Under the pieces are notes generated by a model. That model was not told the origin of the DNA and ran no database searches. It worked only from the letters and a program-made list of their open reading frames with translations. Of a DNA stretch of 54,587 nucleotides, positions 52,702-53,465 are shown one piece after another. Position numbers and translations under genes: made by a program. The number at the start of each line of letters is the position of its first letter. Positions within the stretch are counted from its first letter, which is position 1. Source of the stretch: a virus. The stretch lies in the UHGV virus genome UHGV-0036483. One strand, 5' to 3'.

Positions 52702-52796
52702 GCCCGTAAAATCACCAAAACGTAAACCAAAAAACTGTTTTTATCATTTAAATATCAATGATATAGAAAATATTTTAAAAAAGTATACAAAATGGA

Positions 52797-52825
52797 TTGA
52801 CTCGGTATATCACAGGGCGTATATT
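52797..52825 (+). promoter_or_regulatory. pL-like early promoter: -35 TTGACT, 17 bp, -10 TATATT
   Basis: Near-consensus sigma70 hexamers with optimal spacing downstream of cI terminator. Confidence 0.5.
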
Positions 52826-53078
52826 GCGAATCAAAGGAAGGAGGCAGGAAACAAAAAGCACCTTCCTTGCACTTTAAAAATCAGGCTTAACACCTTGTCA
52901 ACCGTGGAGTAACTCCCCGATGGTGGACCGAAAGCGGCACTGATAACAAGGCGCATGGGGTGTTTAAAGCGTTACATCCCCCACGAAACCGCACGCAAGG
53001 CGACAAGTCAGCTTGCTTGGAGTGAGCAGGGTCACACCGGAAACGGCGATGATTGCGGGATTAGTTGAAAGATGTTAA

Positions 53079-53118
53079 GCCATTCTTTAACAATCTGGTC
53101 AGCCGCTGGAAGTGCGGC
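53079..53118 (+). promoter_or_regulatory. nutL-like site (boxA-like GCCATTCTTTAACAA + boxB-like hairpin GCCGC-TGGAAGT-GCGGC)
   Basis: 8-nt spacer between boxA-like and hairpin; ~55 nt upstream of N-like gene. Confidence 0.4.
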
Positions 53119-53174
53119 AATTAACGAAGATGATTTTTTATTAAGTATCATCAAGGATATAAGGAGATCAGATC

Positions 53175-53465
53175 ATGACAGTTACAATCATGTATGGCAA
53201 ATGTGACAGTAAACTGAATGCCAGGGAACGCAGAAGAATAAAAAGAGAAAACGAAAGAAAATCATCACCTGCAATTAATAAAAAAGACAATGTGGATAAA
53301 GCTATTCGCTTTGCAAACGAGGAAAGATGCAAACCAAATAGCATTAAAGAACGTCGCAAAGGAGCAGTAAAATGGTATACGGAAAATGAAAGCGGCAACT
53401 ACTACCACGCAACGCAACCACGCCATTTAGGGGAAAAACCCCTTGATAAAGTCCGTTACCATTAA
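53175..53465 (+). CDS. N-like transcription antiterminator
   Basis: 96 aa; N-terminal arginine-rich motif NARERRRIKRENERK; first gene of early-left operon; AAGGAGA RBS. Confidence 0.55.
   Translation: MTVTIMYGKCDSKLNARERRRIKRENERKSSPAINKKDNVDKAIRFANEERCKPNSIKERRKGAVKWYTENESGNYYHATQPRHLGEKPLDKVRYH

Follow-up and report, generated by a model that had tools for sequence, protein, structure and literature searches.

What is encoded at positions 52752-53465 of the virus genome UHGV-0036483, where a promoter, a long untranslated leader and the gene for a small arginine-rich protein follow a cI-like repressor gene? We analyzed the full 54,587-nucleotide (nt) stretch of DNA (the window), beginning from an initial annotation that had proposed N-type processive antitermination at this locus. 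It is very probable that the locus is the promoter-leader-nut-N module of a temperate coliphage of the mEpimmI group, orthologous to Gp17 and nutR1 of phage mEp021, with a 213-nt optional insert in the leader on top. The N-like antitermination system is already known: it matches the published, experimentally supported system of mEp021, and the proposal as first stated adds nothing to it. The optional and highly conserved leader insert, together with the orphan boxA at its 5′ edge, seems to be undescribed so far.

The antitermination module

Positions 52672-53500 share 95.8% DNA identity with Enterobacteria phage mEp021 (MH706966) and 91-94% with mEp515, mEp010, mEp044, mEp013, mEp554 and MagusPhagus; no further record among 50,697 phage genomes matched. 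The mEpimmI group consists of Nus-dependent, non-lambdoid temperate coliphages, and the mEp phages were isolated as Nus-dependent (PMC11893012). Section 3.5 of that paper, citing Valencia-Toxqui et al. 2023, describes mEp021 Gp17 as a lambda N-like protein that mediates early antitermination via nutL, nutR1 and nutR2. Five arginines are reported as required, with R17, R19, R20 and R24 fully conserved and R21 present in 45 of 48 phages (PMC11893012). The 96-residue product of the first gene in the window is 96.9% identical to mEp021_17 and has arginines at all five positions, within the N-terminal arginine-rich motif that had been noticed from the sequence (NARERRRIKRENERK, residues 15-29). R17, R20 and R24 do not vary among ten homologs, down to 65% identity, and R19 and R21 hardly do. 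Antitermination by mEp021 Gp17 was reportedly seen by Valencia-Toxqui and colleagues in a green fluorescent protein reporter and in gp17-deletion experiments. The original proposal of N-type antitermination thus matches the literature on a nearly identical protein, and the placement of Gp17 in an N-like protein family (see below) agrees with it.

The near-consensus early promoter that had been predicted upstream of the leader is indeed present (Table 1), and its -35 and -10 hexamers are retained in all ten lineages compared. There is good evidence that this promoter is functional, because the hexamers are kept although the spacer between them has largely diverged in the two distant loci L010 and L011. 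Transcription would start near position 52832.

The boxA core TCTTTAACAA occurs exactly once in the window, in the nut site ahead of gp17. It is identical to ten consecutive bases of the E. coli rrn boxA consensus, TGCTCTTTAACAA. Copies with one mismatch and a similar spacer and hairpin lie at 51856-51847 (minus strand) and 5928-5937 (plus strand), each a short way downstream of one of the two other early promoter-like sites. At each site boxA is followed by (T/C)C(C/T)GG, a further 2-3 nt, and a short G+C-rich hairpin. A covariance model whose training set included these three sites gave exactly three full matches in the 54.6-kb window (53079-53125, 5923-5966 and 51861-51818), a result that shows only the absence of a fourth full site. 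The nutL site is nearly invariant in nine lineages, and nutR2 is conserved in mEp021. These near-consensus boxA sequences are consistent with binding of NusB/NusE.

The boxB hairpin ahead of gp17 covaries. In an alignment of ten sites, both members of three of the five stem pairs have changed, pairing holds in 97.8% of cells but falls to 15-63% once the partner columns are slid, and the covariation score was reached by none of 500 shuffles. Other Gp17 lineages (69-73% identical) carry GCUAC-UGAAAU-GUAGC, GCAC-UGAAAA-GUGC or UCGC-UGAAAU-GCGA at the same distance from boxA. Because of the shared layout of the three sites and the covariation of boxB, we judge the boxA and hairpin at 53079-53118 to be a genuine nut site, as had been suspected. 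The covariation of boxB and the conservation of the promoter provide independent sequence support for carrying the mEp021 annotation over to the present phage.

An optional insert in the leader

The leader had been described as about 340 nt long. Its length is indeed about 343 nt, but it is composite, with about 130 nt common to all related phages and an optional insert of 213 nt. Measured from the inferred transcription start to gp17, leaders come in two discrete forms of 344-348 nt or 131-135 nt, with no intermediates. The long form is found in the window, mEp021, mEp515, mEp010, MagusPhagus and most prophages and metagenome contigs, and the short form in mEp044, mEp013, mEp554 and 10 metagenome contigs. 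L010 and L011, whose Gp17 is about 70% identical, also lack the insert and have a cI-to-gp17 interval of about 265 nt. The two forms differ by a single block, 52869-53081, that ends directly before the resident boxA (boxA2), and roughly three quarters of the related phages carry it. The account of the group in PMC11893012 mentions neither the optional nature and conservation of the insert nor the orphan boxA.

The insert appears to be confined to these phages. Of 5,426 complete E. coli genomes, 31 carry it, each as a single copy of 93-98% identity. A blastn search of phages and plasmids (11-base words, E 10) returned only mEp-type phages and chance 20-mers, and three pattern scans of IMG/VR returned only mEp-type contigs and two chance matches. 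In GTDB species genomes an 18-mer scan produced 16 matches, all of them chance, and none could be extended past the seed with nhmmer. Searches of Rfam 15 with 305 nt of the leader and with 2.9 kb, under permissive filters, gave only chance matches (ceN108, E 0.29; a viral pseudoknot, E 8.2), and ARAGORN found no tRNA or tmRNA in the whole window. We also considered an HK022 put-type RNA for the structured leader and rejected it: on reading, no resemblance to the HK022 pL-nun leader was seen, and the phage keeps a full nut/Gp17 system.

Two parts of the insert can be distinguished. At its 5′ edge is boxA1, the orphan boxA-like sequence, which is the fourth-best match to the nut model (E 0.35) and matches in the boxA part only, without a boxB. 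It is identical to the boxA region of nutR2 at 16 of 18 positions (read by eye) and departs from the consensus in having GCACTTT instead of GCTCTTT. Not one substitution occurs in 53 copies of the 5′ 44 nt of the insert, boxA1 included. The remainder is a structured domain of about 197 nt, held by a closing helix whose pair probability in folds of the whole leader is at least 0.98 in four of five variants and 0.54 in the window's own.

The insert is the most conserved stretch of the immunity and early region. Among 36 distinct long-form sequences its mean pairwise difference is 0.020, compared with 0.070 for cI, 0.078 from terminator to promoter, 0.088 for the first leader hairpin, 0.10-0.13 from boxA2 to the start codon and 0.083 for gp17, and the boundaries of this conservation are sharp. 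One hairpin, at 53012-53030, has exchanged three compensatory pairs between two lineages (C-G to A-U, U-A to C-G and G-C to A-U). Two U.G pairs in the same hairpin are kept in both lineages; the other strand would give A.C mismatches there, and the constraint therefore lies on the plus-strand RNA. Three more single changes are compatible with structure: G.U to G-C, C-G to U.G, and a tetraloop change from GAAA to GGAA with an adjacent A.C to G-C. From this we conclude that the insert is most likely a functional structured RNA, transcribed within the leader. Three observations complicate this reading. The minimum free energy (MFE) of the domain folded alone has a z-score of only -1.5 relative to shuffles, most helices never vary, and the G-run at 52920-52924 tolerates G-to-T changes that break one of the predicted hairpins.

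Could the insert instead be neutral, either a scar left where two boxA sequences recombined or what remains of a mobile element, and conserved only through recent spread? Direct boxA-like repeats do flank it (GCACTTTAAAAATCAGG and ATTCTTTAACAATCTGG, identical at 12 of 16 positions when read by eye), it comes and goes as one block, and the MFE z-score is modest. However, the neighboring genes and flanking noncoding sequence differ by 0.07-0.13 up to sharp edges. In the same genomes, divergence from the window is 12-36% at four-fold degenerate sites of cI (19-36% in all but one lineage) and 0.5-6% in the insert. Residence at one locus, once per genome, is not the pattern of a mobile element, and one hairpin has three compensatory pairs. 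We consider this explanation unlikely.

Near the 5′ end of the leader is a further hairpin, the first leader hairpin. The 8-base-pair (bp) stem originally described is present in the window, although only 5-6 pairs are conserved in relatives (6 bp in mEp021) and the short-form leader has a different hairpin at this position. The loop varies in sequence and in length (19-21 nt). The stem columns do not vary across 19 distinct long-form leaders, and no compensatory change was seen. The 3′ arm falls in long-form sequence that aligns at only about 70% with the short-form leader (hand alignment). Lying 2-3 nt from the 5′ end, the hairpin may protect or stabilize the transcript. A second hairpin of this kind, AAGG-CACATA-CCTT, is found in the leftward leader (51875-51862, minus strand). 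Each of the two is directly upstream of a boxA, has a conserved stem and a variable loop, and the order recalls the boxB-boxA arrangement of rrn leaders.

Which site is nutR1

The nut site ahead of gp17 had been called nutL-like. The name is apt in that the site lies relative to the repressor gene as pL/nutL does in lambda, but in the nomenclature of the mEp021 authors nutL is upstream of the repressor gene, nutR1 is upstream of gp17, and nutR2 is the third site (PMC11893012). The site at 53079-53118 is most likely nutR1, since it is the sole boxA/boxB upstream of gp17 common to all members of the group. The published nutR1 occurs at a similar position in all 48 phages, mEp044, mEp013 and mEp554 included, and is the most variable of the three nut sites (PMC11893012); both properties fit 53079-53118.

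The presence of boxA1 raises the alternative that nutR1 consists of boxA1 and an A-rich hairpin in the insert, which would make 53079-53118 a second, unpublished nut site. It is true that boxA1 is closer than boxA2 to the boxA sequences of nutR2 and nutL, and that GAAA-capped hairpins exist inside the insert. Yet mEp044, mEp013 and mEp554 have a nutR1 and no insert, an invariant boxA1 is a poor candidate for the most variable site, and 53079-53118 alone shares its arrangement of spacer and hairpin with nutL and nutR2. This alternative is quite improbable, and we refer to 53079-53118 as nutR1.

Two further features of nutR1 were observed. First, the sequence of boxA2 differs with leader form. 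At 53082-53093 and the homologous positions of loci L001-L075, short-leader phages have the canonical GCTCTTTAA in 15 of 16 cases and TCTCTTTAA in one; every long-leader phage deviates, most commonly with GCTCATTAA, and otherwise with ATTCTTTAA (three copies, including the window) or TCTCTTTAA (five). These counts are not phylogenetically independent. Second, the segment just after boxA (53094-53101, AUCUGGUC) can pair with the interval from the Shine-Dalgarno sequence to the AUG (53165-53172, GAUCAGAU), enclosing boxB, and a shorter pairing, AAUCU/AGAUU, is retained in the divergent L012-type leader. By analogy with lambda N autoregulation, such pairing could link nut occupancy to the translation of gp17.

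Possible functions of the insert

A short open reading frame (ORF) of 37 amino acids (aa) lies within the insert (52955-53068). It is annotated as mEp021_16 in MH706966 and also in mEp515, mEp010 and MagusPhagus, and the frame is uninterrupted in the divergent L012-type hairpin variant, so the insert might encode a protein and not an RNA. However, synonymous and nonsynonymous changes number 7/12, 6/13 and 4/15 in the three frames, with no frame-specific synonymous excess, and in the variable hairpin five of ten residues are changed with base pairing kept. The most conserved part of the insert (52869-52954) is upstream of the ORF, the ribosome-binding site is poor, and a 1-nt insertion in L014 (possibly an assembly error) would shift the frame. 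A protein is thus very unlikely to be what the insert is conserved for.

The initial annotation suggested that the leader could also encode a regulatory RNA, which is plausible for the insert. The insert may represent a new family of phage leader RNA, with its own boxA and a multi-helix domain of about 197 nt in a long closing helix, upstream of the resident boxA/boxB; we offer this tentatively, as a serious possibility that falls somewhat short of being probable. Two modes of action are possible. The insert may act in cis, on Gp17/Nus loading or on gp17 expression and hence on the lysis-lysogeny decision. Alternatively, it may be excised, for example by RNase III, for which the 17-bp interrupted closing helix could be a site, to yield a stable trans-acting RNA. 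By analogy with rrn operons, boxA1 might recruit NusB/NusE and so shield synthesis of the untranslated insert from Rho.

Stretches of 10 nt or more in which the insert is complementary to other parts of the genome number 12 and 14 per strand, compared with about 8 ± 3 for shuffled sequence. The longest candidate trans targets, of 13 and 14 nt, are in lysis genes, and we judged them to be chance. The endolysin/spanin genes show 14-nt identity (13120-13133) and 13-nt complementarity (13475-13487) to the GAAA hairpin region of the insert (53030-53054), likewise judged to be chance.

The insert is 3-6 times more strongly conserved than the neighboring genes and sits between the early promoter and the N-utilization site, a position from which the timing or amount of the master antiterminator could be adjusted. 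Long-leader (mEp021, mEp515, mEp010) and short-leader (mEp044, mEp013, mEp554) phages of the same immunity are in culture, making a direct test possible.

Gp17 and its relation to N proteins

Gp17 is a narrow family, reachable from the N proteins only through profiles, because its homologs are limited to mEp-type phages and to protein clusters of 63-95% identity. When the 50,697 phage records were searched with Gp17 by tblastn, nothing beyond the seven mEp-type phages appeared, even with the threshold relaxed to E 10. A large protein search gave 49 clusters, of which 46 cover essentially the whole query at 63-95% identity, and those of the 46 with a named source are from E. coli. A scan of metagenomes with the Gp17 profile gave 24 loci, all 72-99% identical.

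Comparison with the N proteins of P22 and lambda was the check originally proposed, and it gave a divided answer. All belong to one profile family, phrog_271 ("anti-termination protein N-like"), which matches Gp17 at E 1.5e-11 over residues 2-95 and also matches lambda N (4e-23) and P22 gp24 (7e-40). The N-terminus of Gp17, MTVTIMYGK..NARERR, aligns with MTVITYGK..NAKTRR of P22 gp24 (E 0.007), but the similarity to P22 covers only about 20 residues and there is no BLAST-level match to lambda N.

Several other results weigh against the module as we read it. An hhalign comparison of Gp17 with P22 gp24 gave a probability of 9.9% over 21 residues, the Pfam N_peptide family (PF25694) scored E 0.016 and 16.2 bits against a curated cutoff of 27.9, and no PDB chain matched at E ≤10, either with the single sequence or with the family profile. 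NCBIfam returned no relevant family for Gp17. The boxB loops of the other sites follow U-GNRA-W (U-GAAA-U, U-GCGA-A), and that of nutR1, U-GGAAG-U, is atypical, being one base longer (an extra G) and no textbook GNRA pentaloop. In addition, no operator overlapping the promoter core was found, leaving repression in the lysogen unexplained.

The weak similarity to N proteins might suggest that Gp17 is mainly a Nun-like exclusion or termination factor, HK022 Nun having the same map position and an arginine-rich motif too, or else a generic RNA-binding protein; this is barely credible, as Nun falls in phrog_5632 and Gp17 groups with lambda N and P22 gp24, the phage has three nut sites of its own, each downstream of an early promoter-like site, and antitermination is reported for the 97%-identical mEp021 protein (PMC11893012, section 3.5).

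Operon context and proposed mechanism

The genes after gp17 encode a Kil-like protein, Erf and an SSB-like protein (Table 1). The SSB-like ORF is cut by the end of the window, and a 92-aa ORF at 110-388 then corresponds in both size and placement to the gene found after SSB in related phages. This is why we read the window as the complete, circularly permuted genome of an mEpimmI-group coliphage, with further same-strand ORFs after the wrap. The similarity of the ORF after gp17 to Kil strengthens the likeness of this operon to the pL operons of lambda and P22.

Laid over the site anatomy, conservation, boxB covariation and family placement of Gp17 that we observe, a mechanism can be proposed that borrows RNA binding, Nus dependence and read-through from work on mEp021 and from the lambda/P22 paradigm. 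Host RNA polymerase would start at the early promoter and synthesize the untranslated leader of about 343 nt. The nut site in the leader RNA would consist of boxA, an 8-nt spacer and the boxB hairpin. Gp17, the basic 96-aa product of the first gene, would bind the GNRA-like boxB loop through its arginine-rich N-terminus, here as well as at nutL and nutR2. Together with host Nus factors bound to boxA, it would turn the polymerase termination-resistant, allowing it to pass the intrinsic terminators predicted downstream on the same strand, after the wrap, at about 654, 2915, 3096 and 6208.

Comparison with known systems

The closest system is that of mEp021, which has the same repressor, terminator, promoter, three nut sites, gene order and long leader. 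The boxA next to boxB is GCTCATTAACAA there and ATTCTTTAACAA here, and other sequence differences are small.

Gene 24 of P22 shares the phrog_271 family, the N-terminal pattern MTV.I.YGK...NA+.RR, and a gene position that is downstream of the repressor gene and follows an early promoter. The nut sites are also alike, in that boxA CTCTTTAAC comes before a G+C-rich hairpin that has a 5-bp stem and an A-rich loop (GCGCU-GACAA-AGCGC in P22). By both BLAST and hhalign the similarity is limited to about 20 residues, however, and the C-terminal half of Gp17 (WY.ENESGNY.HA.QPR.LGE.PLD.VRYH) has no P22 counterpart. P22 has two nut sites and not three, its nut is about 150 nt from the start codon (56 nt here), and in the present phage the extra structured RNA is upstream of nut and not between nut and the gene.

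Lambda has the same order of cI, terminator region, pL, untranslated nut leader, N, kil and recombination genes, and the same boxA/boxB layout with a GNRA-like loop. Gp17 shows a weak C-terminal match to lambda N (RRKGAVKWYTE and ERKNQRTWYSK) but no significant pairwise similarity. The lambda N leader is 223 nt long and has a large hairpin, processed by RNase III, downstream of nutL. In contrast, the large structured element described here is upstream of nut, is optional and has its own boxA.

A more distant analogy is to RNAs led by boxA, such as E. coli rrn transcripts and CRISPR array leaders, in which Nus factors bound to boxA shield the transcript from Rho. As with boxA1 and the insert, boxA in these systems leads into a long, structured RNA that is not translated and has its ends joined by a long helix, as in pre-16S rRNA. 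No sequence relationship of these RNAs to the insert was found, and boxA1 deviates from the consensus.

Candidate operators and other features

Features of the locus and of the other two nut sites are collected in Table 1. The terminator after the cI-like gene, published in mEp021 as t1, is annotated as TERM_1 in MH706966 and is kept in all relatives.

Table 1. Features discussed in the text, with positions in the window.
Feature	Position	Strand	Details
cI-like repressor ORF	52024-52671		HTH_3 and Peptidase_S24
Intrinsic terminator after cI-like gene (t1)	52678-52693	+	6 G-C pairs, T-rich tail CTTTCTTTG
Palindrome	52752-52764		13 bp, ATATCAATGATAT
15-mer, candidate operator	52781-52795	+	AAGTATACAAAATGG; abuts -35 hexamer, invariant in relatives
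Early sigma-70 promoter (lambda pL analogue)	52797-52825	+	TTGACT-17-TATATT; 10/12 consensus positions, best site of the region
First leader hairpin, near leader 5′ end	52834-52868	+	8-bp stem, AAGGAAGG/CCTTCCTT
Orphan boxA-like sequence (boxA1)	52869-52885	+	GCACTTTAAAAATCAGG; 5′ edge of insert
Structured domain of insert, ~197 nt	52884-53081	+	9-bp closing helix, GGCTTAACA (52884-52892) with TGTTAAGCC (53073-53081)
nut boxA region	53079-53093	+	GCCATTCTTTAACAA
boxA of gp17-proximal nut site (boxA2)	53082-53093	+	ATTCTTTAACAA; GCTCTTTAACAA in short-leader relatives; aligned with boxA of nutL and nutR2
boxB hairpin	53102-53118	+	GCCGC-UGGAAGU-GCGGC
gp17 ortholog, N-like antiterminator, 96 aa	53175-53465	+	ATG at 53175; ribosome-binding site AAGGAG, 53161-53166
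Kil-like ORF, 40 aa, next after gp17	53496-53618	+	Lambda_Kil E 2.2e-4 (below cutoff); phrog_2055 E 0.0015
Erf	53615-54268	+	Pfam ERF E 1.3e-41
SSB-like ORF	from 54269	+	runs past window end
nutL	51818-51861	-	boxA GCTCTTTAAAAA, 51858-51847; boxB UCGCU-GCGA-AGCGA, 51839-51826
Leftward promoter-like site	51964-51937	-	TTGACC-16-TAAACT; upstream of nutL
nutR2	5923-5966	+	boxA TGCTCTTTAAAAA, 5925-5937; boxB 5945-5958; upstream of ninF-ninG-resolvase-Q
AAGTWTACARAATGG copy	52781-52795	+	abuts -35 of early promoter
AAGTWTACARAATGG copy	51936-51950	+	over -10 of leftward promoter-like site
AAGTWTACARAATGG copy	5828-5842	+	around predicted promoter just upstream of nutR2; inverted relative to next
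AAGTWTACARAATGG copy	5898-5912	-	around the same promoter; inverted relative to previous

The 13-bp palindrome noted upstream of the promoter is present but is weaker than had been implied: among phages that share one immunity, its right half, GATAT, is replaced by GAGAT, AGCAT or GACAT. We rejected it as the operator on this ground, and it is unlikely to serve as one. A better candidate is the 15-mer AAGTWTACARAATGG, which has four exact copies in the window, each of them at one of the three promoter-like sites ahead of the nut sites, and 23 sites at three or fewer mismatches (6.7 expected). The Rep021-type repressor may use it as an operator. The account of the mEpimmI group in PMC11893012 names no operators and no native phage promoters.

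The third nut site may also have its own input. A promoter-like sequence, TTGTTA-16-TATACT (5884-5911), lies directly ahead of nutR2 and the ninF-ninG-resolvase-Q genes. Centered about 60 nt upstream of its expected start is a CRP-like site (5851-5866, TGTGATGCGGATCACA) with perfect half-sites, TGTGA-N6-TCACA, which mEp021 conserves with a single mismatch. The arrangement points to a separate promoter for nutR2, possibly dependent on cAMP-CRP, beyond read-through from nutR1. The 15-mer and the CRP-like site are concrete, testable sites in the mEpimmI regulatory circuit.

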